A stretch of 12,726 nucleotides of DNA from a virus. Its lineage: Duplodnaviria > Heunggongvirae > Uroviricota > Caudoviricetes. Below are positions 1 to 12,726 of this stretch, in pieces. The notes under the pieces were generated by a model. That model did no database searches. It saw nothing but the letters and a program-made list of their open reading frames with translations, and had not been told where the DNA came from. Where the stretch lies: the IMG/VR virus record IMGVR_UViG_2585427728_000005, one strand, 5' to 3'. A program made the position numbers and the translations under genes. The number at the start of each line of letters is the position of its first letter. Position 1 is the stretch's first letter.

Positions 1-53
1 GGTATCCGTTCTGCTGAAGTGTCATGGCGTTGATTTTACGGTGACTCTTCGAC

Positions 54-83
54 AGTGAAAAGAAAAAAGGCCGCAGAGCGGCC
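54..83 (-). terminator. Rho-independent terminator downstream of the 209..646 gene
   Basis: Perfect GC stem GGCCGC (69-74) / GCGGCC (78-83) with a 3-nt loop; on the minus strand the hairpin is followed by a T-run (plus-strand A-run 63-68). No T-run follows it on the plus strand. Confidence 0.5.
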
Positions 84-208
84 ATAAACACAAGTAAAAA
101 TCAACAAGTTAGATAATTATCAAAGACTTACAGACACACAAAAACACAGCCAACCACAACAAATAACAGGGATGTGGTCACTTTGTGGATCATATCGCCG
201 CCATAAAT

Positions 209-646
209 TTACTTAATAACAGTAACCACAGCCACAAGCACGGCCATCGCAGACAGGACAATACCTGTGAGTAACCAAGTCTGATTTGCAAATGATTTCT
301 GAAGTTCAGTACGATGCTCAGCCATCTCAACTTTCAGAGACTGGCGTAAATCAGCCATCTCAGACTTCAGGGATTGGCGCGATTCTGCCATCTCAAGCCT
401 CAACCCTTCGCGAATCTCCAGTACATCAGATTTGGTAGCAAAGGATTCGCTTCTTGTGGTGAGAGTAATCAGGTTGTTTTTGATTTCAGTCACATCACTT
501 TCCAGGCAACTGACCCGCCGTTCAAGGTCGTCATTCATGCCATCACCTCCATCATTACCACTTCCTGTTACTTGGTTGTTGGATACATTATAGGCATTCT
601 CTTTCTTTTTTCTGAACCGCGAAATATGTGCAACATTCTCTGCCAT
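209..646 (-). CDS. Hypothetical protein with an 11-residue-repeat coiled coil and a C-terminal transmembrane helix; sits where a tail-fibre assembly/chaperone gene would be expected, but is not recognisable as one
   Basis: Open frame of 146 codons from a GTG at 649; the first ATG is at 646. Three 11-aa repeats (EMAESRQSLKS / EMADLRQSLKV / EMAEHRTELQK) and a hydrophobic C-terminus (WLLTGIVLSAMAVLVAVVTVIK). Lies directly downstream of the tail-fibre cassette on the same strand and is followed by the terminator at 54..83. Confidence 0.55.
   Translation of the reverse strand: MAENVAHISRFRKKKENAYNVSNNQVTGSGNDGGDGMNDDLERRVSCLESDVTEIKNNLITLTTRSESFATKSDVLEIREGLRLEMAESRQSLKSEMADLRQSLKVEMAEHRTELQKSFANQTWLLTGIVLSAMAVLVAVVTVIK
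318..416. repeat. Three imperfect 33-bp tandem repeats inside CDS 209..646, encoding the 11-residue coiled-coil repeats
   Basis: Copies begin with tcagccatctc at 318 and 351 and with tctgccatctc at 384; the period is exactly 33 bp. Confidence 0.7.
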
Positions 647-677
647 CACTTCTCATCACCCTGCTTGCCTACCCAGT

Positions 678-1100
678 TCATAAAGGCCCGGGCCGAGTAA
701 CGATGAACAAACCCACATCTGTTACAGGTAAGTCGGAATTCATAGTTATGGATATTTTCCCGATCATGTCCCTCATATCCCGGATATCCCAATTCCATCC
801 AACGGATGTATCACCATTAACAGTATTACCTGTTTGTCGGAGTGCAAATGCATTGACATTTTTGGCACTAATTGAAATATCGCTAGAACCATCAAAACCA
901 ACTCCAGCAATTTTTCGTGCTGTTTTCAGCTTTGTTGCAGTAGCGGCATTGCCGGACAGCTCCCCAGAAAGGCCACCGCTGAATGTTTGTCGATTGGTCC
1001 AGGTATTCGCTGTACTGAGTAACGGTATTTTCTCCCCGCTTGTGCCGAGTTCTCGTAAACCGAGGTTTTGGATAATGGCCGTTTCCGGCCTGCATGGCAT
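678..1100 (-). CDS. Tail-fibre protein C-terminal (variable) cassette with no N-terminal constant domain of its own; probably the invertase-proximal alternative cassette of an invertible segment
   Basis: Contains the conserved tail-fibre motif ATATKLKTARKIAGVGFDGSSDISI that I recall from P2 H, Mu S and P1 S type fibres. The frame is open upstream only to a stop at 1125-1127, so no constant part is encoded on the invertase side. The gix-like site at 1050..1075 lies inside its 5' end. Confidence 0.6.
   Translation of the reverse strand: MPCRPETAIIQNLGLRELGTSGEKIPLLSTANTWTNRQTFSGGLSGELSGNAATATKLKTARKIAGVGFDGSSDISISAKNVNAFALRQTGNTVNGDTSVGWNWDIRDMRDMIGKISITMNSDLPVTDVGLFIVTRPGPL
1050..1075. other. 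gix/hix-like recombination (crossover) site for the adjacent serine invertase
   Basis: TTCTCGTAAACC-GA-GGTTTTGGATAA: two 12-bp imperfect inverted half-sites (9/12 symmetric) around a central GA dinucleotide, about 55 bp upstream of the invertase start. It differs at only two positions from the Mu gix sequence as I recall it (TTCCTGTAAACCGAGGTTTTGGATAA). Confidence 0.65.
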
Positions 1101-1129
1101 GATTTGCGCTTTTGGACGGGAGATTCAGC

Positions 1130-1729
1130 GTGCTGATTGGCTATGTAAGGGTATCAACAAATGACCAGAATACAGACTTGCAACGAAACGCTCTTGTTTG
1201 TGCAGGATGCGAACAAATATTTGAAGATAAATTAAGCGGGACAAAGACAGACCGACCGGGATTAAAACGCGCTTTAAAGCGCCTTCAAAAAGGTGACACG
1301 CTGGTTGTCTGGAAACTGGATCGCCTCGGGCGAAGCATGAAACATCTGATTTCTCTCGTCGGGGAACTACGGGAGCGAGGGATTAATTTTCGCAGTCTGA
1401 CCGACAGCATAGATACATCTTCTCCAATGGGGCGTTTTTTCTTCCACGTGATGGGTGCCCTGGCTGAAATGGAACGTGAATTAATTGTTGAACGTACACT
1501 GGCCGGACTGGCGGCAGCGCGCGCACGGGGGCGCACAGGCGGACGTCGACCGAAGCTGACAAAAGAACAGCATGAGCAAATAGCAAGGCTAATCAAAAAC
1601 GGGCACGACAGAAAACAACTGGCAATAATTTACGGCATTGGCACATCGACGATTTATCGTTATCACCCTGTAGGCGATATACAGACTGAAGAAACAACCG
1701 GGCAGACTCAGGAAAATGAAAACCGCTAA
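1130..1729 (+). CDS. Serine recombinase DNA invertase of the Gin/Pin/Cin/Hin family
   Basis: From the GTG at 1130 the product is 199 aa and begins VLIGYVRVSTNDQNTDLQRNAL, the hallmark N-terminus of Gin/Pin with the catalytic Ser in YVRVST; it also has the GDTLVVWKLDRLGRS and MGRFFFHVMGALAEMERELI blocks and a C-terminal HTH region. A GGGAGA Shine-Dalgarno lies 6 nt upstream of the GTG. The ORF track begins at a TTG at 1112, which is probably not the real start. Confidence 0.9.
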   Translation: MLIGYVRVSTNDQNTDLQRNALVCAGCEQIFEDKLSGTKTDRPGLKRALKRLQKGDTLVVWKLDRLGRSMKHLISLVGELRERGINFRSLTDSIDTSSPMGRFFFHVMGALAEMERELIVERTLAGLAAARARGRTGGRRPKLTKEQHEQIARLIKNGHDRKQLAIIYGIGTSTIYRYHPVGDIQTEETTGQTQENENR

Positions 1730-1749
1730 TCTGACCATTAGCGGTTTTT
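1719..1749. terminator. Bidirectional intrinsic terminator between the convergent invertase and gpU genes
   Basis: Perfect 12-bp inverted repeat aaaaccgctaat (1719-1730) / attagcggtttt (1737-1748) with a 6-nt loop, and A/T runs on both sides giving a U-tract in either direction. The invertase stop codon lies in the left arm. Confidence 0.5.
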
Positions 1750-1757
1750 GTGTAAAA

Positions 1758-2252
1758 TCAGAACAGCCCTTTAACTGAACTGGCCGCGCTGTTAAGAGAT
1801 GATGTCACCTTATCTTTGAAGCCGGACAGCATATCACTGAACGATGAGGATTGCAGGCGCTCCCGCAAATCCTCATCACAGCGTTCAAGGGTCAGTGAAA
1901 ATTCTATCTTTTTCGCCTTACCGTAGCGATCAAACTCGGAACGGGTCGTATTCGTTTCAGTCAGCACATACATGCCGTAAATCTGCCCGACGCCATCAAT
2001 CAGAGGCCAGGGTCGTCCTGTATACGCCTGCGTGGTCAGCAGCGACAGCGATACTTCGCCACCTGTAATTTCAGGATAAAGCACACCAGAAAGAACGATG
2101 CGATCATCTCCTGCACCGATATACTGCCAGCTTGCTGAACGGTTAACGCGTTCATTTTTCACATGCCGCCAGCTTTTGTTTTGCTGTAACTGCTGATGCG
2201 GCAGCGTGCGCAGCTCAAAAACAAACATGCCGTAGATCATCATCATGGCCAT
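1758..2252 (-). CDS. U: P2-type tail protein gpU
   Basis: About 160 aa, immediately downstream of the tape measure gene on the same strand, matching P2 gene order T-U. The N-terminus (MMMIYGMFVFELRTLPHQQLQ) fits my recollection of the gpU family. A GAGGAG Shine-Dalgarno lies upstream; the true start may be the second or third Met. Confidence 0.75.
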   Translation of the reverse strand: MAMMMIYGMFVFELRTLPHQQLQQNKSWRHVKNERVNRSASWQYIGAGDDRIVLSGVLYPEITGGEVSLSLLTTQAYTGRPWPLIDGVGQIYGMYVLTETNTTRSEFDRYGKAKKIEFSLTLERCDEDLRERLQSSSFSDMLSGFKDKVTSSLNSAASSVKGLF

Positions 2253-2258
2253 GACTCC

Positions 2259-5075
2259 TCAATCTTTATCGTAAAAACTGCCACGCCCGGCACGGGCGCG
2301 CCGTTCCATTTCTGCCCTGACCATTTCACCTACCAGTTTCGCAAGTTCGCGGGGATTCTGCGTAACAACGTTATGCAGATGAACATGAATTTCACCGCCA
2401 AATCCGGAGGCAACCGGCTCCCGATTACGGGAAGCTGCAGGAACTGATGCCACTGGCGATCGTATGGCCTCCGCCACCGGGCGGGAGCTGGCCGCAACAA
2501 CAGGGACCAGCGCCGGAGGCAGCGGAGCCGGGACCACGGGTGTGATATTAATTGCGGGGGCAGGCTTACTGACCTGCGCAATCTTCCGCTCCTGCCACTC
2601 CCCACGAACGGCAAGTGCGCGGGGCAGGTTCTTAAAGACAATATCGCCGGGGCCAATGCGTTTTTTCGTCTCATCAACCAGCTTACCTGTGTTATCAGCA
2701 ATTTTGCTGAGTCTGCGCAGCGTACCGGTATTGCTGTCTGTGAGCGGTTTATTGTCTTTGGGGTTATCACCTCCGGTACCATTGCCATTTTCCACAGGCT
2801 TCGGCGGATTGATTTTCGCCAGGTCCCCCTGAAGCAAGGCAACCTTGTCCTGAAGAATGGCCGCACGCTGTGCGTCTTCGATTTTCTTGCGCGCCCTTTC
2901 CGCTTCATCCGGAAGGACGCCAAGTTTTTCAAGTATCCACGCCAGCGTATCCAGCAGCATTTTTGCAGGTGTCAGAACAAGCTGTAACGCACCGCCAAGA
3001 ACGTTACCGAATATCTCGCCAGCACTGGTACATTTATCCAGCGTTTCCTTGCTGGACTCCATCGGTGACAGCAGCGATTTAAACCAGTTAAACACCTGGC
3101 TGATCCCGCTCCCGATTGCGTCAAAAACAGGACCAAACCGTTCAAAAGTTTCGCGCAACGGGGTCAGCCTTTCCATAATCCCGCTGAACACCCCGGCAAA
3201 AAATGCCCTGATGGGATCCCAGTATTTCCAGATAAGAACGGCAGCTCCGGCAAGCGCAGCCACGATAAGACCAACCGGACTGAACAACGCCCCGATAGCG
3301 CCTCCCAGCAAAGAAACGGACCCCGTCACCATTCCCCATAGTGCTGGCAGGACCCTGACAGCATTCATTGATCCGGTCAGGAGAGAAAAACCAAGACGCA
3401 GTTTTGCCAGCGGACCAGCAAGCACACCAATAGCCAGCGACAACGAGCCAACCGTTGCAGTCATTGCCAGCAACGCACCGCCTGCTATCAGTAGCTGGCG
3501 CGTCAGTGCCGGATGGGCCTGCGCCAGCGCCGTCACCCTTGATACCACCCGCGTGAGCCACTGCGTGACAGAACGCAGCGGACCGTCAATCAGATCTGCA
3601 ATGCGGATGCGCAACCCTTCCCATGCACTGCCGAGTGATTTCAGATCGCCGTCAAGGTTGTTGGCCATAACCTTTGCTGTGCGTTCAGCCTCACCGCGCG
3701 CGCCTTCAAGTTCTTTTCTCAGTTTGGGTAAGGAACCGTCACCCGCTGCATCAACGAGCGCCATAAACGATGTGAAAGCCTCTTCTCCGGCAATGTCCTT
3801 AAAGAACGATACCCGGTCAACTTCCCCGTATTTGCGGGTGGCTTTATAAAGGTCGGCCAGCACATCCTCCATCGGGCGCATTTTGCCCCCGGCATCCGAG
3901 ACGGACACGCCCAGCTCTTTCAGAGCTTCTGCCCCCGCCTTTGGCGGTGATGCCAGACGAGCCAGGCTGGCACGCATTGCCGTCCCGGCATCACTCCCTC
4001 TGATGCCCATATTCGCCAGCACGCCAGCCATCGCTGCGGCCTGCTCCAGCGATATTCCCAGCTTCCCCGCCACCGGACCTGCATATTTCATGGTTTCGCC
4101 CAGTGCGCGAAGGTCAGTGTTGGTACGGGTAAACGCTGCGGTGAGTGTGTCACCGACCCGGTCCATCTGGTCAGCAGAAAGGCCGAACTGCGTCAGGATA
4201 TTTGAGCCAATATCTGCCGTCTCGCCGAGATCCATACCGCCAGCCGTTGCCATGCTCAGCACGCCGGGAAGCGCAGCCTGAATGGCCTGCGGAGTGAAGC
4301 CAGCCATTGCAAGAAATGCCTGTCCACTGGCGGCATCGCCTGCGGTGAACTGCGTTTCAGAGCCAAGTTTTAACGCCTGCTCACGCAGCGCTTTAAACTG
4401 CGGGCTGTTCTGGTCGATTCGCGTCAGTGCCTGAACGCGGGACATCTCTTTGCCGAACCCGATCGCAGGCTGCAAAAAACGCCCGGCAGCATAGCCGCCC
4501 GCCGCTGCCGCACCAATTGCCAGCGCACCACCTGTTTTCAGTTTTCCCGCTGTTTCCTGCGCGCGCGAATACCGCTCACGCGCCCGCGTTACACGCGCAA
4601 GCGCCTGCCGTTCGCGTTCAAGCTGGTTGTTGTACTGTTCGGTGCGTCTGATGGCCTGCTGGATGGTGTTATCGCTGCCTGTCAGGGAAATGCCGTGGCG
4701 TTTCAGCTCTCCGCCAAGTTCCCGCATTTTCTGAATTTCCCGTGTGCGCGATTCATTCAGGCGTTCAAGCCGGGTGCTTAACTGCCGCATCAGCTTTTGT
4801 TGTTTTTCGCTGAGCACTGTACCCGTGCGTTGTAACTGATTAAGGGCGTTAAGCTGGCGTCGTGCTTTCAATATGCCAGCATCCGCTTTACTGACAGCGT
4901 CACGGGCGCGCTCAAATGAACGCGCCTGACGCTCGAGATTTTTGATCGCCCCCTGCGTTCGCTGGATGGAGTCACCAAGCTGCCCCATCAGGCGGCGGGC
5001 GTTTTCGGCAGGCCGGGTCAACCTGTCAACGGCGCTGAAAGCGACCCGGATATCAAGAGTCTTCATTATCTGCAT
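2259..5075 (-). CDS. T: Tail tape measure protein (gpT-like)
   Basis: 938-aa ORF with a long coiled-coil N-terminal region and Gly/Ala-rich hydrophobic segments typical of tape measure proteins. It lies between the chaperone gene E/E' and U. The start may be the internal Met at 5066. Confidence 0.85.
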   Translation of the reverse strand: MQIMKTLDIRVAFSAVDRLTRPAENARRLMGQLGDSIQRTQGAIKNLERQARSFERARDAVSKADAGILKARRQLNALNQLQRTGTVLSEKQQKLMRQLSTRLERLNESRTREIQKMRELGGELKRHGISLTGSDNTIQQAIRRTEQYNNQLERERQALARVTRARERYSRAQETAGKLKTGGALAIGAAAAGGYAAGRFLQPAIGFGKEMSRVQALTRIDQNSPQFKALREQALKLGSETQFTAGDAASGQAFLAMAGFTPQAIQAALPGVLSMATAGGMDLGETADIGSNILTQFGLSADQMDRVGDTLTAAFTRTNTDLRALGETMKYAGPVAGKLGISLEQAAAMAGVLANMGIRGSDAGTAMRASLARLASPPKAGAEALKELGVSVSDAGGKMRPMEDVLADLYKATRKYGEVDRVSFFKDIAGEEAFTSFMALVDAAGDGSLPKLRKELEGARGEAERTAKVMANNLDGDLKSLGSAWEGLRIRIADLIDGPLRSVTQWLTRVVSRVTALAQAHPALTRQLLIAGGALLAMTATVGSLSLAIGVLAGPLAKLRLGFSLLTGSMNAVRVLPALWGMVTGSVSLLGGAIGALFSPVGLIVAALAGAAVLIWKYWDPIRAFFAGVFSGIMERLTPLRETFERFGPVFDAIGSGISQVFNWFKSLLSPMESSKETLDKCTSAGEIFGNVLGGALQLVLTPAKMLLDTLAWILEKLGVLPDEAERARKKIEDAQRAAILQDKVALLQGDLAKINPPKPVENGNGTGGDNPKDNKPLTDSNTGTLRRLSKIADNTGKLVDETKKRIGPGDIVFKNLPRALAVRGEWQERKIAQVSKPAPAINITPVVPAPLPPALVPVVAASSRPVAEAIRSPVASVPAASRNREPVASGFGGEIHVHLHNVVTQNPRELAKLVGEMVRAEMERRARAGRGSFYDKD

Positions 5076-5289
5076 TCCCGCTGCGAAGTGCCGCCCGCTC
5101 GCGCCAGCTAACCACTTCGCCGGGCGTCATCATGAAGATTTCGGCGGGCGACCAGTTAAAAATGGCGGCAATATCCGCCACCAGATCTTCGATGTGCTCA
5201 AAGCACACCAGGGTGATTACGCTGCCGTCTCCTGCACGCTCTTCGCGCCAGAGTCTGGCTCGCTCATAAAATTTACAGCCACAGCGCAC
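5053..5289 (-). CDS. gpE' extension: the -1 frame part of the tail assembly chaperone fusion E+E', reached by programmed frameshift from gpE
   Basis: A -1 frame relative to gpE is open from 5319 to a stop at 5053 and overlaps both the 3' end of gpE and the 5' end of gpT, the conserved arrangement of tail chaperone frameshift genes. The slippery heptamer is at 5268..5274. Confidence 0.6.
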   Translation of the reverse strand: MRCGCKFYERARLWREERAGDGSVITLVCFEHIEDLVADIAAIFNWSPAEIFMMTPGEVVSWRERAALRSGNADNEDS

Positions 5290-5591
5290 AACTGAATAAA
5301 ATCGCGTGACGACATTTTTTTAATCATCACTTCATCCAGTCGTGGCGAGGTCACGCGAGGCAACAGCGTGAACATGGTATCCGCTTTCAGATTCAGCACA
5401 TCAGACAGCGACAGACCACGCAGGGATCCAGCCTGCTCAATAGCCCCGGTGATCTCCACATACGTGATTTTTTCGCCACCACGCTCAATTGGTCGGGTCA
5501 GTTTTACGCCACGTTCGACAGCCATATCCTCACCTGCCGTCACATCATCCGCCACGGTGTTATTCCGGGTTTCAGTATCGATGTCTTTCAT
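5217..5591 (-). CDS. E: Tail assembly chaperone gpE (0-frame product)
   Basis: 124-aa ORF between the tube gene and the tape measure gene, with an AAGGAG Shine-Dalgarno 7 nt upstream of the ATG at 5591. Position and the overlapping -1 frame match the P2 E/E' arrangement. Confidence 0.7.
   Translation of the reverse strand: MKDIDTETRNNTVADDVTAGEDMAVERGVKLTRPIERGGEKITYVEITGAIEQAGSLRGLSLSDVLNLKADTMFTLLPRVTSPRLDEVMIKKMSSRDFIQLCAVAVNFMSEPDSGAKSVQETAA
5268..5274 (-). other. Candidate -1 programmed ribosomal frameshift slippery heptamer A_AAT_TTT in gpE
   Basis: In the gpE frame the minus strand reads GTA AAT TTT ATG (V N F M). The heptamer A-AAT-TTT fits the X_XXY_YYZ pattern, and a -1 slip gives AAA TTT TAT (K F Y), which is exactly the sequence of the overlapping frame. 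Confidence 0.4.
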
Positions 5592-5646
5592 CAGTTGTCT
5601 CCTTTTCAGTCAGAGGCGACGCACTGCGCCGCCTGCATATTATTTA

Positions 5647-6159
5647 TCAGCCAAGCCCAAGCGCGGAACGGATACGGTCAGGCACAATGTCCTTGCCGTC
5701 CTTCCGGTAGATGTGGTTCAACAGGTCGATTTCCCACAGCGGGCGATCGTTAACGCTCAGCTTGTAGTAGGTGTTTTTGACAGCGTAAGTGTGTGATGTG
5801 GCTTCACCCTGTTTGGCTTCCCCCATATCAATTTCCGTCACACGCCCGCGCATCTCGATTTCATACAGATCACTTTCTGCATCGGTGTAGTATTCACCCG
5901 CAAAACGCAGCAGCGTGCCGTCAATCGTGCCGCCATATTTAAGGAACAGCTCACGAACTGCGCCCCCCATGACAAAGCTCGCATCAAGCGCGGAGTCGTC
6001 CAGACCGAGATCAATACTTACCGCCCCCATCATGCCACCACCCCGGTAGCTGTCGGTTTTGCGCGTCAGCTTAGGCAGAGTGACGGACGTCACCTTACCC
6101 ACTTCGTTTTCACCATCCACAAACAGCGTAAAAAAGCGAAGATGTTTTGGCACAGCCAT
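5647..6159 (-). CDS. FII: Tail tube protein (gpFII-like)
   Basis: 170 aa, immediately downstream of the sheath gene; the sheath stop and tube start overlap as TGATG at 6157-6161. Size and position match the P2 FI-FII pair. Confidence 0.85.
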   Translation of the reverse strand: MAVPKHLRFFTLFVDGENEVGKVTSVTLPKLTRKTDSYRGGGMMGAVSIDLGLDDSALDASFVMGGAVRELFLKYGGTIDGTLLRFAGEYYTDAESDLYEIEMRGRVTEIDMGEAKQGEATSHTYAVKNTYYKLSVNDRPLWEIDLLNHIYRKDGKDIVPDRIRSALGLG

Positions 6160-7343
6160 CAGGCACCTCCCAGCACCGCAAATGCGGGTTCAAAGTATTC
6201 ATCAGTAAACGTCTGGTAAAGCTCCATGTCTTCCAGTGGCGGAACGGGCGTATATTTGTAGCGAATGCGCACACGCCCCTGACGTAAATCCGTGGTGCTG
6301 TTATCCACCACGTCATACCAGCACTCCGCACCAATCAGTTTCCCGGCAGTAACCAGTGAATCCAGTTTTGCCCTGATGGCACTGATAACATCCTTCACGT
6401 TCGCAGGCGTCAGTGGACTGTCGATGGTTTCAAACTGCGCTTCCGCAATTGAATCAGCCAGCACCTGTGCGGTTCGGGTATACACCTCAAAGATGTAGGC
6501 GTTCGTTTCCGGTGTGCGGTTGCCCCAGAAGCGGAACCCGTTGCGACGAATAATGGTCGTGATTTCTTTGTTGTTGAGGCTGTTGGCATCACTGTCTTCG
6601 GCCTGCAACGACCAGAACACATGCCTGGACATCCCCAGCACATTTTTAACCGGAACGTTGGACAGCGATTTGTGCCAGCCCTGCTCATGGTCAATGTACG
6701 CACGAAGGCCGCACGCATAAGCAGGCGCGGGGAACGTTTCGTTTTCGCCACTTTTCGGGTTGTAGGCGATGAAGTCCGGCCATAAGAGCATCACTTCACG
6801 TTCGTTGAATTTCTGGCGGTAGGTAATCGCTTCAGCCATCGTGTTACAGCCGTGACATGAGGCATACACAAACGCACGCAGTTTACCCGCAATCACGCAC
6901 AGGGATTTTGTCACCGCCTCCGTGTCCAGCTCCGGCGCGGCCAGAATACGCGGACGGTATCCGATGCTTTCATCCTGCTCTGCAACAAGCAGCGCATACA
7001 TCCCCGTATAGCTGCCGTCATCCTCAGAACCACCGATAACCAGTTGATCCTGCGTCTTTTCGTCTTCTTCTTTGTGTTCAGCCACGCGAACGACGATCAC
7101 CTTTGTGCTCACCTGGTCTGCGATGGCCTTAAGCGCACGATAAAGCGTCCCCGTTGTCCCGCATTTTCCCAGCACGTCATTGACGCGGGTCAGCAGTGTG
7201 GGCTTGTTCAGCGGGAACAGCTTCGCGTCCGCATCATCCGCCGTTGCCACGATACCGATAACACTGGAATCAACATCATTAATCGCTGTTACCAGGTCGG
7301 TATTTTCCGTAACACGGGCACCATGAAAACGAGTTTCACTCAT
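6159..7343 (-). CDS. FI: Contractile tail sheath protein (gpFI-like)
   Basis: 394 aa (P2 FI is about 396 aa), first gene of the FI-FII-E-T-U block, with an AAGGGG Shine-Dalgarno upstream of the ATG at 7343. Confidence 0.9.
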   Translation of the reverse strand: MSETRFHGARVTENTDLVTAINDVDSSVIGIVATADDADAKLFPLNKPTLLTRVNDVLGKCGTTGTLYRALKAIADQVSTKVIVVRVAEHKEEDEKTQDQLVIGGSEDDGSYTGMYALLVAEQDESIGYRPRILAAPELDTEAVTKSLCVIAGKLRAFVYASCHGCNTMAEAITYRQKFNEREVMLLWPDFIAYNPKSGENETFPAPAYACGLRAYIDHEQGWHKSLSNVPVKNVLGMSRHVFWSLQAEDSDANSLNNKEITTIIRRNGFRFWGNRTPETNAYIFEVYTRTAQVLADSIAEAQFETIDSPLTPANVKDVISAIRAKLDSLVTAGKLIGAECWYDVVDNSTTDLRQGRVRIRYKYTPVPPLEDMELYQTFTDEYFEPAFAVLGGA

Positions 7344-7500
7344 AGCTTCAGCCCCTTGTATCCGTTAAATGATTCGGCAACAATCATCACCCACCACGCG
7401 CGTAATCTCACCCCTGCGCCGTTCTCCCGACCCGGCGACAACAAAAAGCAGTAACCCCCTCCGCACGCACATGCGACCATGCCACACAGGGAGGGAACAG

Positions 7501-8610
7501 ATGACCGATACCACCATGCAATTGCTCAGTCAGGGCACAGACCCCGTGAAAATGCCGGATTTTGATATTCTCGCGGAGGGTAAAACGCTGTCAGGCGTGG
7601 CAGAGCGCCTGATGACCCTGTCACTGACCGACAACCGGGGATTTGAGGCGGACCAGCTCACCATCACGCTGGATGATGCGGATGGTCAGTTGCAGCTACC
7701 GCAACGGGGCGCGCGCCTGACGGTTCTCATTGGCTGGAAAGGCGAACCGCTGACAGAAAAAGGCACTTACATTGTTGATGAAATCGCACACGAAGGACCG
7801 CCGGACAGGCTGACTGTTTCAGCCAGAAGCGCAGATTTTCGGGATGAATTTAACGTTAAACGTGAGGTGTCCTGGCATGATGTGACCGTTGAGCGTGTGG
7901 TATCCGCCATCGCTCATCGGTATGGTCTGAAACCGCAAATCAGCGAAATGCTGATGGATATCGAAATCGACCACGCCGACCAGACCGAAGAAAGCGACAT
8001 GTCCTTCCTTACGCGCATGGCGGAAATGCTGGGCGCAATCACCACGGTAAAAAGCGGTAATCTGTTATTCATCATGCCCGGTGGTGGCGTGAACGCACAG
8101 GGCCAGCCGTTGCCCTCGTTCGCCATCACGCGCAGCAGTGGCGATCGCCATCAGTTCCGCATTGCTGACCGCGAAGCGTATACGGGTGTACGCGCCTACT
8201 GGCTTGATCTTAATTACGGGAAAAAGAAAAAAGTCAGCGTGAAACGCCGCAAACCGCCAAAACCCAAAAAGGAGAAAAGCAGCAGCCGTGAAGGTGATTA
8301 TATGGAAGGCGCGGAAGGAAATGTGTTTGTGTTACGCAAGACTTATCAGAACGAGCAGGCAGCAAGACGCGCAGCGGCGGCAAAGTGGCAGCAGCTACAA
8401 CGCGGAGCCGCATCATTCTCCATCACACTGGCTCGTGGACGCGCAGAACTCTACCCCGAAATGCATGGCACGGTAACAGGATTTAAAAGCGAGATTGATA
8501 ATCAGGACTGGATTATTGCGAAAGCCGATCACACCATTGATAACAGTGGCTTTACCACGCAGCTTGAGCTTGAGGCAAAAATCCCGGAATGGATAGCGGA
8601 AACAGAGTGA
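7501..8610 (+). CDS. D: P2 gpD-like tail protein (late control D family)
   Basis: 369 aa from the ATG at 7501, which has a strong GGGAGGG Shine-Dalgarno 5 nt upstream; the ORF-track start at 7369 is probably too far upstream. Size and sequence character fit the gpD family, and it lies upstream of ogr as in P2. Confidence 0.8.
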   Translation: MTDTTMQLLSQGTDPVKMPDFDILAEGKTLSGVAERLMTLSLTDNRGFEADQLTITLDDADGQLQLPQRGARLTVLIGWKGEPLTEKGTYIVDEIAHEGPPDRLTVSARSADFRDEFNVKREVSWHDVTVERVVSAIAHRYGLKPQISEMLMDIEIDHADQTEESDMSFLTRMAEMLGAITTVKSGNLLFIMPGGGVNAQGQPLPSFAITRSSGDRHQFRIADREAYTGVRAYWLDLNYGKKKKVSVKRRKPPKPKKEKSSSREGDYMEGAEGNVFVLRKTYQNEQAARRAAAAKWQQLQRGAASFSITLARGRAELYPEMHGTVTGFKSEIDNQDWIIAKADHTIDNSGFTTQLELEAKIPEWIAETE

Positions 8611-8657
8611 GCAACTGGGATGCATTAGTTCAGACACGGGCTAGCATGCTTACGTAC

Positions 8658-8700
8658 GGCACAGAAGCAAACCTAATTGGAGTTTTGCTCTGTGCCTTTC
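8658..8700 (+). terminator. Possible terminator hairpin downstream of gpD
   Basis: Imperfect 14-bp inverted repeat ggcacagaagcaaa (8658-8671) / ttttgctctgtgcc (8683-8696) with one bulge, followed by only a short TTTC tract. Confidence 0.3.
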
Positions 8701-8820
8701 ACCGATTGGCCAAGTGTAACCCGCCTTACACCAAGACGAATTATAATTGGCAACAATGTCAGTAGTTACTATAAATGTTTATAAACAAAGATTTATTTCT
8801 CCGAAGCTACAAGCACTACA

Positions 8821-11613
8821 CTAAATCTCAGCAATCTTTTTTTTACTGTGCTGTTCTATTATCAACTCTGCTTCCGCTTGGTATTCATGAGCTAACTCTC
8901 GAAGAATTCGGGCAAATCGATGAAAGCCTAGAAGTTCCATTGCATCAGACTTAGTGTGATATTGTTGGGCTAACTCCAATTCCGGTTTACCTTCTGGGTC
9001 AACAATGTAGACACCACGCGAATTTATTATCGCATTCTTATAACCAGTACGCACTTTATCAAGTTCACGTCTATTCAAAAACTCGGCCAGTTCTGGAAGT
9101 ATCCAATGCTCGTCATTTGCAGGGCTAAAAATTAATATGCTTCCAATCCTATGATAAGCAAAATCTAAATGGCCTGACTTTTCGCATTCTGTTTGGACAA
9201 AATCAAACCAGTTATTAAACGCCTTGACATCAAACTTGCCTTCAGCATCAACACCCGGAATCTTTTTCCAATCATCAAGTAAATAGAGTGAGTTTTTGGC
9301 AATATTTATTTCACTTTCAGATAGTTCTTTACTTGCTTTTTGAAATTCTGATCGATACGCATATTGAATGACTTCACAAAAAAAACTGGGTTCACTTGCA
9401 AGTTTTTTCTCTAATACTTGAGGATGCAACGAATCATTAGCCCCCCTGTTAATTACAGGTAGGTATGCCCATTCAATCTTTACTAAGTCGTCATCTGAAA
9501 CAGTGTTATCATTTTGAATATAATTCACAAGTTCATTAAATGAGTGAATATCAAACCGCTCAATATTTTCTGTGGTTCTAATTGATTGCAATAGAGCAAG
9601 CACAACCTTACTGCTATCAACTGAATTATCGATATGCAAAATTTTAGATAAACAATCTATTGCCATCAAGGGACGGTCTACTTTAATCAAGCAGTCTATA
9701 GCAAAATAAATTTCTTCCGTTGAATCACAGCTGTATGCATTAACAAGAGTATTTTTCCAATACTCGAAAGGAAAATCATCAAATGAAGCGTTTAATGCAT
9801 CCCATGTTTCTTTTTTAAACGGTAACAAAAGAAAAAAAGCAATCTTTTCTTGAGCACTCCAGTCATTAATAACTGTCAACACCCATGATTTTCCTTCTCT
9901 GTAGTTTTTAGCCTGTACATAACCAGAAGCAAGAGAATTTTCCTTTTTAATATCACTAACAATAAGTTTTTTCAGTATATCTAAAGGAATTTCTAGATCT
10001 TCTGCGACCAGGCTACTACCAACAAACTCAGGCCTTTCAATAGATAGAGAGAATTCTAAGACTCCATCAATACCATTAATAGCATATATTTCGCATATTG
10101 ATTGCCCTCGTTCTTTTGTCAACCTTTCTTCTTGGTCCCGCCAGTTTCCATTTTCATCAAATAGGAAGTAATTGTTTTGTGCAAAAAGTCGCTTGCTATA
10201 AAGCATAGGATCTTCGGGCTTCAAGACTGTAGAAACATCTTTGATTTTTTCATTTTGTTCTGGTTGCATTGCCCAATAAGCACCTGAGAATCTTTTGTTT
10301 TTGTTATAAACTTCTAAACATTTTTCCCACACCGCTAACTTCAATTCAGCACTATCTGTTTTTTTAGAAAAATCATACAATAGTTTAATTGCATCATCGA
10401 ATTTAAATGGCGCTAAACTACCAATATTTTCAACTAAATCAACAAGTCTTAATGATGATTTACTTGCCAATTCAATTGTTAATTGAGTGTATATTTCAAT
10501 CTGAGTACGGCACTCATCACCCGATGGCCTTTTATTAAAACCGTTAGGAATAAAGTTTCTAAAAGTTGGAATATGTGTGCCAGATGTTACTTGCGTGTTG
10601 TTGGGTAGCAACTGAACTAAAACACGCCATGCTGTATCGGGCCACTCCCTTGCCAATGCGTTGAAAGCAGCAATACGTCTATCTATATCAGCTGTAGTAT
10701 GAGGAAGCCATGGTAACAATATGTTGATTATCGAGTTAAGTGGCCTGTTAGCCCAATTGCCACCAGGATCATGGCTATCCAGCTCCCCTAATATTACTAA
10801 AGAGCGAGATAAATAGTTAGGCGCCCAAGCTAATCCTTCAATAGCCCATAGCAGTCCTGTCATATAATTCCGACCTGAAATTCCACCGATACCTTCCTGT
10901 GCAAAAAGTGAATCAAATGGCTTGTCTTGGTGAGATGCAGCATTTTCCACTTCGTCGATAAAACAGTCAGGAGCACTTTCCGCAAGCATAACTTGAATAT
11001 CTTGCGTACTAGCCCATAATTGCCAGCTAGAAGCCGAAAAAACCTCTTTAACCACACTTGAGGCGCAATATTGCCCTTTATATTTTGAGCAATTAGTAAG
11101 TAACTCTTGCTTTGTTGCAACTAATGCCAACCCTTCGGATAGTCCTTTCCTTATTAATCGGCTGTGTGGTAAAACCTTCCCATAAATTACTGCTGCATAA
11201 CGCTCTTCAGGTGCCAGTTCAAATTGTGGGTCGATAGTTTTAAAAACGGATACAACAGTCGTCCGAAACAAATCCAAATGATCATCGAATAATCTTGACG
11301 ATACCGTTTGAAATGTTTGTATTCTATCTTTAAAACTCCAAGAACCTCTCTCATGAATCAAAGGACTATCTTGCATCCCTTCAATTATTCTTAATTTTCG
11401 AATCCAACTGTCATATGACTCGCTAATAAGGCTTGTAATTATATCAATATCACCATTATTTTTTTCATCCCAGCAACCGACTAAAACAGCAATCGCTAAC
11501 TCAGTCGCATAATCAACATTATCACTATTGTATACAATTAAGTTACCAGCAACATTATGGCCTGTTCCGGTATGATTTTGACTAATTGAACTGCAGCTAT
11601 GAATGTTATCCAT
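8821..11613 (-). CDS. Large (~930 aa) protein of unknown function; second gene of the AT-rich cargo operon between D and ogr
   Basis: Uninterrupted 2.8-kb ORF in AT-rich DNA, where long open frames are unlikely by chance. ATG at 11613 with a GAGG Shine-Dalgarno 8 nt upstream; the ORF track starts at a GTG at 11619 that overlaps the upstream stop. I see no Walker A, HExxH, HNH or RT motif and cannot assign a family. Confidence 0.85.
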   Translation of the reverse strand: MDNIHSCSSISQNHTGTGHNVAGNLIVYNSDNVDYATELAIAVLVGCWDEKNNGDIDIITSLISESYDSWIRKLRIIEGMQDSPLIHERGSWSFKDRIQTFQTVSSRLFDDHLDLFRTTVVSVFKTIDPQFELAPEERYAAVIYGKVLPHSRLIRKGLSEGLALVATKQELLTNCSKYKGQYCASSVVKEVFSASSWQLWASTQDIQVMLAESAPDCFIDEVENAASHQDKPFDSLFAQEGIGGISGRNYMTGLLWAIEGLAWAPNYLSRSLVILGELDSHDPGGNWANRPLNSIINILLPWLPHTTADIDRRIAAFNALAREWPDTAWRVLVQLLPNNTQVTSGTHIPTFRNFIPNGFNKRPSGDECRTQIEIYTQLTIELASKSSLRLVDLVENIGSLAPFKFDDAIKLLYDFSKKTDSAELKLAVWEKCLEVYNKNKRFSGAYWAMQPEQNEKIKDVSTVLKPEDPMLYSKRLFAQNNYFLFDENGNWRDQEERLTKERGQSICEIYAINGIDGVLEFSLSIERPEFVGSSLVAEDLEIPLDILKKLIVSDIKKENSLASGYVQAKNYREGKSWVLTVINDWSAQEKIAFFLLLPFKKETWDALNASFDDFPFEYWKNTLVNAYSCDSTEEIYFAIDCLIKVDRPLMAIDCLSKILHIDNSVDSSKVVLALLQSIRTTENIERFDIHSFNELVNYIQNDNTVSDDDLVKIEWAYLPVINRGANDSLHPQVLEKKLASEPSFFCEVIQYAYRSEFQKASKELSESEINIAKNSLYLLDDWKKIPGVDAEGKFDVKAFNNWFDFVQTECEKSGHLDFAYHRIGSILIFSPANDEHWILPELAEFLNRRELDKVRTGYKNAIINSRGVYIVDPEGKPELELAQQYHTKSDAMELLGFHRFARILRELAHEYQAEAELIIEQHSKKKIAEI

Positions 11614-11618
11614 AGACA

Positions 11619-11939
11619 CTACCTCGTAATTTTATTTCCACCAATATTATCACCAGTGCCACTATGGTTTTGAATAATGACAGTTGCTGCATGAGGTTTT
11701 ATAGACGAGAGTATTTTTTGAATTTCACTACTATCCAATAGTTTTCTTTCAATTGCTATTTCACTCATTTCATCGTTCAAAGACAGTTTTTCAAGCTCTT
11801 TAGCTAAAGCAGGGGCTACAGCCTCATCAACAACCCAATTTTTTAACTTTTCTTTTATTGAAGTTGCAGTAATCGAAACATGATGTTTAAGCATGTCATA
11901 AACTATGCCAGAAAGTATCGTCGAAGATAAAAAATCCAT
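11619..11939 (-). CDS. Small (106 aa) predicted helical protein of unknown function; first gene of the cargo operon
   Basis: ATG at 11939 with an AAGGGA Shine-Dalgarno 8 nt upstream. Its TAG stop (11619-11621) lies 6 nt from the ATG of the large gene, suggesting translational coupling. The C-terminus carries the motif QNHSGTGDNIGGN, which is also present at the N-terminus of the large protein. Confidence 0.75.
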   Translation of the reverse strand: MDFLSSTILSGIVYDMLKHHVSITATSIKEKLKNWVVDEAVAPALAKELEKLSLNDEMSEIAIERKLLDSSEIQKILSSIKPHAATVIIQNHSGTGDNIGGNKITR

Positions 11940-12075
11940 AACAATTTTCCCTTAACGTAAGATATTTACTATCAAGATACATTTTAAATCGAAGAAAGAG
12001 CTTTTACCACGTATATTTATTGGCTAATAACATGATAATTCGACTGTCTGCTATTCGCTTAAAACGAAGAGTTTG

Positions 12076-12104
12076 TTGGAATTATAGCCAGCACGACCTA
12101 GAAT
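12076..12104 (+). promoter_or_regulatory. Candidate sigma70-type promoter for ogr
   Basis: TTGGAA (12076-12081), a 17-bp spacer, then TAGAAT (12099-12104), about 30 bp upstream of the ogr ATG. The region is AT-rich, so this could be a chance match. Confidence 0.25.
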
Positions 12105-12134
12105 AACATCAGCACTGCGTTAAGGGAGGTCGCT

Positions 12135-12395
12135 ATGTTCCGTTGCCCGCTTTGTGGCGCATCTGCCCGCATCCGTACCAGTCGTCCGGAAAATGATTCA
12201 AATACCGTGCGGCAAAAGTATTACCAGTGTAACAACTTGGAATGCGGCGTCTGCTTCTCAACACTGGAAGCTTTCCATAAGTTCACATCAAAACACGCCT
12301 CAAGTGTTCACTCTTCAGAGGGTATCCCGTGGCATGCTCTGCCTGCTTCACACAGGGGAAACAGTCAGATGAGTTTGCCCTTACCTCAGGATTAA
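12135..12395 (+). CDS. ogr: Ogr/Delta-family zinc-finger late gene transcription activator
   Basis: N-terminus MFRCPLCGASARIRTSR...YYQCNNLECGVCF carries the C-x2-C...C-x4-C zinc finger and aligns with P2 Ogr as I recall it (MFHCPLCQHAAHARTSR...YHQCQNVNCSATF). A GGGAGG Shine-Dalgarno lies 5 nt upstream of the ATG. It lies downstream of D as in P2. Confidence 0.85.
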   Translation: MFRCPLCGASARIRTSRPENDSNTVRQKYYQCNNLECGVCFSTLEAFHKFTSKHASSVHSSEGIPWHALPASHRGNSQMSLPLPQD

Positions 12396-12455
12396 CAAGC
12401 AGAATTGCCGGAGTAACAAAAAAGCGATAGATTACGCGCGGGTGCCTTTCGGCTG

Positions 12456-12719
12456 ATGGTCGGAGGGAATACCCGAAGGCCAGATGTGGAAAGGCCCCGG
12501 AAAACATTTCTGTTTAACCGAGGCCCTAACCGCATTACCTTGACAAGTGAAAGGTTAGCGCCTCTCCGGAAAAGGAGCAAGTGCTATGTCGCAAAAATCG
12601 CTTACGGCCATCACGTTCTGCGTGACGGCAATCCTCATCATCTGGATGCTGCACGGTTCGCTGTGCGAAATACGGATGAGCTTCTGGGGAGCGGAGTTTG
12701 CGGCGTTCTTACAGTGTAA
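12456..12719 (+). CDS. mok-like overlapping leader ORF of the hok locus
   Basis: An 87-codon frame that begins upstream of the hok-like gene and overlaps almost all of it in a different frame, as mok does in hok/mok/sok loci. Assigned by position only. Confidence 0.3.
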   Translation: MVGGNTRRPDVERPRKTFLFNRGPNRITLTSERLAPLRKRSKCYVAKIAYGHHVLRDGNPHHLDAARFAVRNTDELLGSGVCGVLTV

Positions 12720-12726
12720 GCAGTAA
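12586..12726 (+). CDS. hok: Hok/Gef-family type I toxin (small membrane peptide)
   Basis: 46-codon ORF, too short for the ORF track: MSQKSLTAITFCVTAILIIWMLHGSLCEIRMSFWGAEFAAFLQCKQ, ending in TAA at the last base of the window. It has an N-terminal TM helix, the conserved SLCE(I/L) block and an E-x-AAFL-x-CK tail that resemble HokA as I recall it. An AGGAG Shine-Dalgarno lies 8 nt upstream. Confidence 0.75.
   Translation: MSQKSLTAITFCVTAILIIWMLHGSLCEIRMSFWGAEFAAFLQCKQ

Follow-up and report, generated by a model that had tools for sequence, protein, structure and literature searches.

A probable P88-like prophage remnant with an orphan Gin-type invertase and a single gix site at the ihfA terminator of Escherichia coli

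Results

Overview of the window

The DNA analyzed here, referred to as the window, was the complete 12,726-nt viral record IMGVR_UViG_2585427728_000005. Window positions 84-12726 are very probably what a deletion has left of a P88-like (Xuanwuvirus, P2-related) prophage integrated at the ihfA terminator, in which a Mu-type tail fibre switch was reduced to a dead half with one crossover site. Compared to the intact prophage of strain 19AR1724, 24,202 bp were absent at an internal junction. The prophage parts left were a right arm of approximately 11.9 kb and 0.7 kb of the left end. The features of the window were as follows.

1-83, no strand: host chromosome, ihfA-btuC intergenic region, 83/83 bases identical to K-12 MG1655
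69-83 with T-run 68-59, minus strand: ihfA intrinsic terminator hairpin and prophage att core, from the terminator scan; GGCCGCTCTGCGGCC
84-785, minus strand: attL-proximal end of a P88-like prophage, 99.7% to NZ_CP195804 38064-38853, beside int and btuC
209-649, minus strand: 146-aa coiled-coil/TM ORF within the attL-proximal end
649-789, minus strand: C-terminal 47 codons of a 120-aa ORF, which in full adjoins int in intact relatives
678-1100, minus strand: chimeric 140-aa ORF, not a real gene, from its translation compared to both parents
785..786, no strand: internal deletion junction, from a three-way comparison of the window and the parental flanks and from BLAST coordinates
786-1064, minus strand: stub of the silent fibre C-terminal cassette (H'v), first 93 of 236 codons, PHROG 454
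1050-1075, plus strand: single gix-type crossover site, equivalent to gixR, central dinucleotide GA at 1062-1063
1130-1729, plus strand: intact Gin-type DNA invertase, GTG start, 199 aa, from Pfam, Gin identity and PDB matches
1719-1748, no strand: hairpin with a 12-pair stem, probable bidirectional terminator between the convergent invertase and gpU genes, from a terminator-like scan
1758-2252, minus strand: gpU (ORF/Pfam, as for the features below)
2259-5075, minus strand: tape measure
5647-6159, minus strand: tube
6159-7343, minus strand: sheath
ending at 8610, plus strand: gpD
12135-12395, plus strand: ogr

Host chromosome and prophage left end

The window began in host DNA. Its position 1 abutted the start codon of btuC, which lies to the left on the minus strand, and some part of window 1-800 was matched in all 5426 complete E. 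coli genomes. The terminator scan detected the hairpin GGCCGC-TCT-GCGGCC followed by TTTTTTCTTT at 83-69 on the minus strand. Because 1-83 is the K-12 ihfA-btuC intergenic region at 100% identity, this hairpin is the ihfA terminator. In K-12 the same hairpin stands 3' of ihfA, and the intact 19AR1724 prophage repeats it at the junction on the ihfA side; this repetition at the other prophage junction identifies it as the att core. The ORFs of the attL-proximal end matched PHROG 9415 and PHROG 4293, both families of unknown function.

The content to the left of position 1 was deduced from the first 83 bp of the window and from near-identical contigs of other samples. Four contigs (L006, L007, L012, and L013) showed 99.99-100% identity to the window and extended leftwards by up to 9.3 kb through btuC, btuE, btuD, nlpC, ydiV, selO, hemP, aroH, ppsR, and ppsA. 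The right flank of near-identical relatives contained ihfA, pheT, and pheS, on to thrS. The initial annotation had read a terminator at 54..83 as the mark of the centre of an invertible segment, and had expected a partner cassette, a second gix site and a constant fibre gene to the left of the window. The hairpin is real, but it is the ihfA terminator on the minus strand in host DNA, and the 9.3 kb to the left hold btuC to ppsA instead, with no site. The annotation had itself stated that its reading would fail if the first few kb to the left held no inverted partner; extension along the near-identical contigs gave none.

Deletion junction at 785/786

In a megablast search of 5,426 complete E. 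coli genomes, two separate blocks were resolved at the left end of the window. Block 785-2300 matched many intact prophages at approximately 99%, and block 1-791 matched the opposite prophage end, which in 19AR1724 lies beside int and btuC, 24.2 kb from block 785-2300. Window 1-791 (99.7%) and 785-12726 (99.3%) corresponded to two places of the NZ_CP195804 prophage that are 24.2 kb apart. The exact overlap at the junction was TA (2 bp), within a loosely similar ATA(T)CCCA motif.

The 785/786 junction was found by megablast in 0 of the 5,426 complete E. coli genomes. An exact-protein look-up found the exact chimeric ORF on 56 contigs from JGI, ENA, and Logan. Since no complete RefSeq E. coli genome contains the junction, all evidence of the lineage comes from metagenomes and read-set assemblies.

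Lost with the deletion were int and the genes for replication, head, and baseplate, along with the constant fibre gene H, the partner gix, and both chaperone genes; of the silent cassette, 61% was lost and 39% kept. With the stretch from int to G' absent, the window does not hold a complete P88-like genome able to excise and form virions. Compared to 19AR1724, the remnant displayed 78 differences in 11,942 nt, and all genes that remain were intact. From its sequence, the deletion looks recent.

Relationship to P88-like phages

The window ORFs and their Pfam matches gave a P2-type tail gene set, and both nucleotide identity and gene order placed the remnant among the P88-like phages (Xuanwuvirus). 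Identity to P88 was 95.8% (window 1055-8616) and to P884B11 98.7% (window 800-2300). Across P88, Xuanwuvirus P884B11, PhiSM, and the intact prophages of UTAK-3, 19AR1724, and SE11, identity was approximately 96-99% over window 785/1055-8616. The P88-like phages (Peduoviridae) share with the window the order invertase, U, T, E, FII, FI, then D and ogr, and the prophages of 19AR1724 and SE11 are likewise integrated between ihfA and btuC. These intact phages carry a further 24.2 kb, which starts at the int-proximal gene, ends in the middle of H'v, and is missing from the window.

The reversed FI-U tail block (1758-7343) was considered as a second invertible segment and rejected, as it had no flanking inverted repeats or gix-like sites. 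The FI-U order is the same in functional phages; therefore, it is a fixed gene order and not a second switch.

A cargo region containing GapS6a was located between D and ogr. It was also present in 19AR1724 and absent from P88 and UTAK-3. PADLOC gave no match on the cargo proteins.

Invertase gene and protein

The invertase gene encodes a small serine recombinase, with Ser9 as the catalytic residue and a helix-turn-helix at the C-terminus. Pfam detected a Resolvase domain (E 1.4e-50) and an HTH_7 domain (E 4e-13), and the top solved-structure matches were Gin (3UJ3/4M6F, E ~1e-100). Protein identity to Mu Gin was 85%, and just two of the first 120 residues differed. The resemblance to Gin was lost in the diverged C-terminal DNA-binding domain, and a mosaic breakpoint was placed near nt 360. 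At the nucleotide level, the first 360 nt were 94% identical to Mu gin, including 175 of the first 180 nt. This 5' part of the gene (5' 180 nt) is where we take the Fis-dependent enhancer of Mu gin to lie, and we infer that the window invertase is also dependent on Fis and the enhancer. Met114 was kept as well as Ser9; the roles of S9 and M114 in Gin, where M114 is the Fis-dependent wild-type residue, have been described (PMC3575834).

The protein was the same at 199/199 residues as in intact, flipping prophages, and the gene differed from that of 19AR1724 by 5 nucleotides, all synonymous. The identical 199-aa invertase is very common in E. coli (13,761 collection blocks), where it is paired with several different cassette combinations. 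The remnant invertase may still be expressed and active.

Single gix site

The sequence TTCTCGTAAACCGAGGTTTTGGATAA at 1050-1075 consists of two imperfect inverted half-sites around a central dinucleotide and occurs once in the window. It is identical to Mu gix at 24/26 positions, and 0 of 200 shuffles gave a match at <=3 mismatches. In the Mu record NC_000929, TTCCTGTAAACCGAGGTTTTGGATAA occurs twice in inverted orientation, and the centres coincide with the annotated G-segment boundaries. Therefore, the 26-mer of the window is a gix site with 2/26 changes. Window 1055-1509 showed 92-95% nucleotide identity to gixR plus gin of Mu and D108.

No second gix-like site was detected in the 12.7-kb window at <=7-8 mismatches in 26, and none leftwards at the same threshold in up to 9.3 kb on the near-identical contigs. 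Rightwards, none was present in the flank of near-identical relatives through ihfA, pheT, and pheS to thrS. Searches for weaker partners in the window and flanks, one using the core AAACCNNGGTTT and one allowing <=8/26 mismatches, returned the known site only. Two inverted sites are present in each of UTAK-3, 19AR1724, and phage P88, compared to one in the window and its flanks.

Fibre stub and chimeric ORF

The H'v stub displayed 0 nucleotide differences from the 19AR1724 cassette over 786-1061, and it matched PHROG 454 tail fibre proteins (E 3e-30, internal region). The receptor-binding end of H'v was deleted. Apart from this stub, nothing of the alternative cassettes, their chaperone genes, or the constant N-terminal fibre gene was present, H, Hv, G, and G' all being deleted. 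The stub occupied the silent, invertase-proximal position, as in intact relatives.

The ORF at 678-1100 was composed of three parts. Residues 1-12 came from translation running through the spacer between gix and invertase, residues 13-105 (window 1064-786) were the first 93 codons of H'v, and residues 106-140 were out-of-frame sequence of the int-proximal 120-aa gene past the junction. In relatives with the gix variant TTTTAAATAA, an internal TAA closes this frame upstream of the cassette.

Several claims of the initial annotation can be judged from these data. Its serine invertase at 1130..1729 and its 26-bp gix-like site at 1050..1075 were confirmed, and its cassette in the unexpressed position agrees with the fibre sequence being invertase-proximal. 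It had also described a minus-strand fibre ORF extending over gix; the fibre sequence is real, but the ORF is a chimera. The Mu-G-type architecture that it proposed was right in its components and wrong as a live switch, which the 24.2-kb deletion has halved.

Switch in intact relatives

The intact prophages showed the order H and G (+), G' and a partial H' (-), recombinase (+), U, T, E, FII, and FI (-), then D and ogr (+). A second inverted site was located inside H at approximately codon 421, 2.65-3.05 kb from gixR. The flipped junction was built in silico by inversion at the central dinucleotide of gix. It was predicted to stay in frame (...EYLGL/RELGTSG..., with the slash at the junction) and to encode a fibre of approximately 661 aa. 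Complete E. coli genomes contained this flipped junction in 159 cases at 99.7-99.8% identity, including SE11 with the same btuC site, and the parental junction in 356 cases. Thus, both orientations of the segment were observed in intact relatives, and in the remnant nothing was left to invert. The protein cluster with the chimeric ORF included 661-aa E. coli tail fibre proteins, and 661-aa fibres bearing the H'v stub sequence exist.

The 159 flipped and 356 parental junctions, the 661-aa fibres, and the same invertase with varied cassettes together indicate that the Mu-type fibre switch of the intact P88-like prophages, a family that is very common in E. coli, is active. P88 and Citrobacter PhiSM are functional temperate phages (PMC5285337, PMC6456863). 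Inversion is not mentioned in the P88 paper.

Discussion

Proposed origin of the half-switch

In intact members, the switch runs from H-constant through gixL, Hv, G, G', H'v, and gixR to the invertase. The invertase, probably together with Fis and an enhancer in its 5' coding region, inverts the segment of 2.7-3.1 kb and fuses either Hv or H'v in frame to the constant N-terminus of fibre H. In intact phages, each inversion thereby swaps the C-terminal receptor-binding part of H. For Gin, the described mechanism involves dimers on two inverted gix sites, activation by Fis and the enhancer, cleavage by Ser9, 180-degree rotation, and religation (PMC3575834). In the ancestor of the remnant, an illegitimate deletion of ~24.2 kb, whose ends share 2 bp of exact microhomology and do not lie at gix, took out the whole stretch that begins with the gene beside int, continues through H, gixL, Hv, G, and G', and ends with the distal 61% of H'v. 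Of the switch, gixR, 93 codons of the silent cassette, and the intact invertase gene remain. As there is one crossover site and the constant fibre gene is gone, neither inversion nor fibre switching can occur at this locus.

Comparison with known systems

One of the closest known systems is the Mu G segment with Gin, whose kin are those of D108, the P1 C segment with Cin, the e14 P segment with Pin, and Salmonella Hin. The catalytic domain is nearly identical to that of Gin, and the silent fibre cassette, gixR, and invertase stand in the same layout as in Mu. The window differs from the G segment in having one site, no constant fibre or chaperone genes, and 39% of one cassette, and its carrier is a P2-type prophage compared to a Mu-type carrier for the Mu switch. 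A similar loss is the defective PhiSM-like prophage CRPr20 of Citrobacter rodentium, in which a central deletion leaves the invertase beside the integrase end (PMC6456863). As described, CRPr20 represents an independent event in another species with other breakpoints.

Alternative explanations

Four other readings of the window were weighed. The invertase, the gix site, and the fibre orientation do match the right-hand border of the G segment in Mu and its counterpart in intact P88-like prophages, which would suit a live invertible segment whose centre lies close to the start of the window and whose partner cassette, second gix, and constant gene lie to the left. This is scarcely credible, because window 1-83 is host intergenic DNA abutting btuC, the near-identical contigs continue for 9.3 kb into chromosomal genes with no gix-like site, and the fibre frame breaks at 785/786 after 93 codons. 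Hardly any weight can be given to an assembly chimera at 785/786 either. The lack of the junction in every complete RefSeq E. coli genome would fit such an artefact, but the exact ORF recurred on the 56 contigs from independent JGI, ENA, and Logan assemblies, one of them 170 kb long, with consistent flanks on both sides. It is also very unlikely that the invertase itself made the deletion via a pseudo-gix near int. The deletion ends only 264 bp from gix, and the CRPr20 deletion also joins the invertase to the integrase (PMC6456863). However, the junction at 785/786 differs from the gix central dinucleotide at 1062-1063, and no 26-mer within <=7 mismatches of gix was present in either parental flank. 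In addition, inversion between inverted sites on the same molecule is the strongly preferred reaction of wild-type Gin-family enzymes.

A further reading, rather unlikely but deserving some weight, is that the orphan invertase has been kept for action in trans on gix or pix sites of other prophages, or for recombination of the lone gix with them. The protein is 100% identical to the invertase of flipping relatives, its gene has accumulated only the 5 synonymous differences from 19AR1724, and both Ser9 and Met114 are retained. Gin, Cin, Pin, and Hin cross-complement, and the extreme abundance of this invertase in E. coli (13,761 blocks) makes resident partners plausible. Against this, the whole remnant is undecayed; therefore, the intact invertase needs no selection to explain it. 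Moreover, no other gix was located within ~9 kb to the left on contigs identical to the window, or to the right in near-identical relatives. Judged on sequence, there is a slim chance that the orphan invertase and lone gix are not inert and that, in the E. coli lineage with this remnant, the enzyme might switch the fibres of other resident prophages in trans or, by recombining the lone gix with gix or pix sites of distant prophages, cause large reversible chromosomal inversions.

Implications

The deletion remnant of a P88-like prophage remains the preferred reading. Accordingly, the appropriate annotation for the locus is a defective P88-like prophage remnant that carries an orphan Gin-family invertase, and the label of phase-variable host-range switch should be avoided. 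One half of a live switch can be mimicked by a single window, and a search for the partner site to the left settles the question. The locus is a relic of an already known switch, with no departure from known biology.

Reversed tail gene block

The gene order of the tail module was compared with that of P2 and related phages, including the following regions:

1758-7343, FI-FII-E-T-U tail block; D, ogr and the fibre genes run the opposite way
7344-8610, stretch considered together with the reversed tail block

In P2, all genes from FI through D, together with ogr, lie on one strand, whereas in the window FI-FII-E-T-U is reversed relative to D and ogr. The reversed FI-U order was also found in P88, PhiSM and P884B11, with 13 phage records in total. 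In these records, as in the window, one end of the reversed block lies exactly at the invertase gene's 3' end. A search for inverted repeats or gix-like sites flanking the FI-U block found none. The reversal looks like an ancestral inversion that became fixed in the P88-like phage group. Because the block is reversed relative to D, D must have its own promoter in the divergent FI/D spacer of 160-210 bp.

Invertase gene and crossover site

The Gin-type invertase gene (1130-1729) is a mosaic. Over nt 1-360 it shares 94% identity with Mu gin; beyond nt 360 this figure drops to approximately 55%. For the C-terminal DNA-binding domain, that of Hin (1HCR) was a further match. By sequence, this drop indicates that the C-terminal DNA-binding domain and the Gin-like catalytic domain differ in origin.

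The right half of the gix crossover site (1066-1075; compared with 12282-12291 of the comparison sequence L001) reads GGATAA, the same as in Mu. Among the closest intact relatives, it reads AAATAA in the E. coli prophages of UTAK-3 and 19AR1724, and AGATAA in P88. With the AAATAA variant, the minus-strand frame contains a stop codon directly upstream of the silent tail-fibre cassette.

Cargo and end-proximal genes

Accessory genes were located at three positions:

209-649, minus strand, 146-aa protein ORF (PHROG 9415, function unknown)
8821-11939, minus strand, cargo genes between D and ogr
12586-12726, attR-proximal end, hok/gef-family toxin gene (46 aa)

The cargo block (8617-12095) is missing in P88 and UTAK-3 and was found in 19AR1724. 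It encodes a GapS6a-family protein of 106 aa (Pfam HetE-N; NCBIfam NF047935, E 5e-40), whose gene shares a one-base overlap with that of a 932-aa protein. The latter had no match in Pfam, NCBIfam or PADLOC. This partner may be a different effector, because the published GAPS6b partner is described as TPR plus PIN (bioRxiv 10.1101/2023.03.28.534373).

At the attL side, the 146-aa protein has a coiled-coil region based on a tandem repeat of 33 nt (318-383); its C-terminus carries a hydrophobic segment. In the intact relatives, this ORF and a 120-aa ORF (PHROG 4293) are located between int and attL, a typical moron position.

The 46-aa toxin showed a weak NCBIfam HokA match below the cut-off, and its counterpart in relatives is annotated Hok/Gef. 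The invertase-side arm was likewise kept in CRPr20, an independent defective PhiSM-like prophage remnant of Citrobacter rodentium. A toxin-antitoxin module at the attR end might favour the survival of deletions that retain the right arm.
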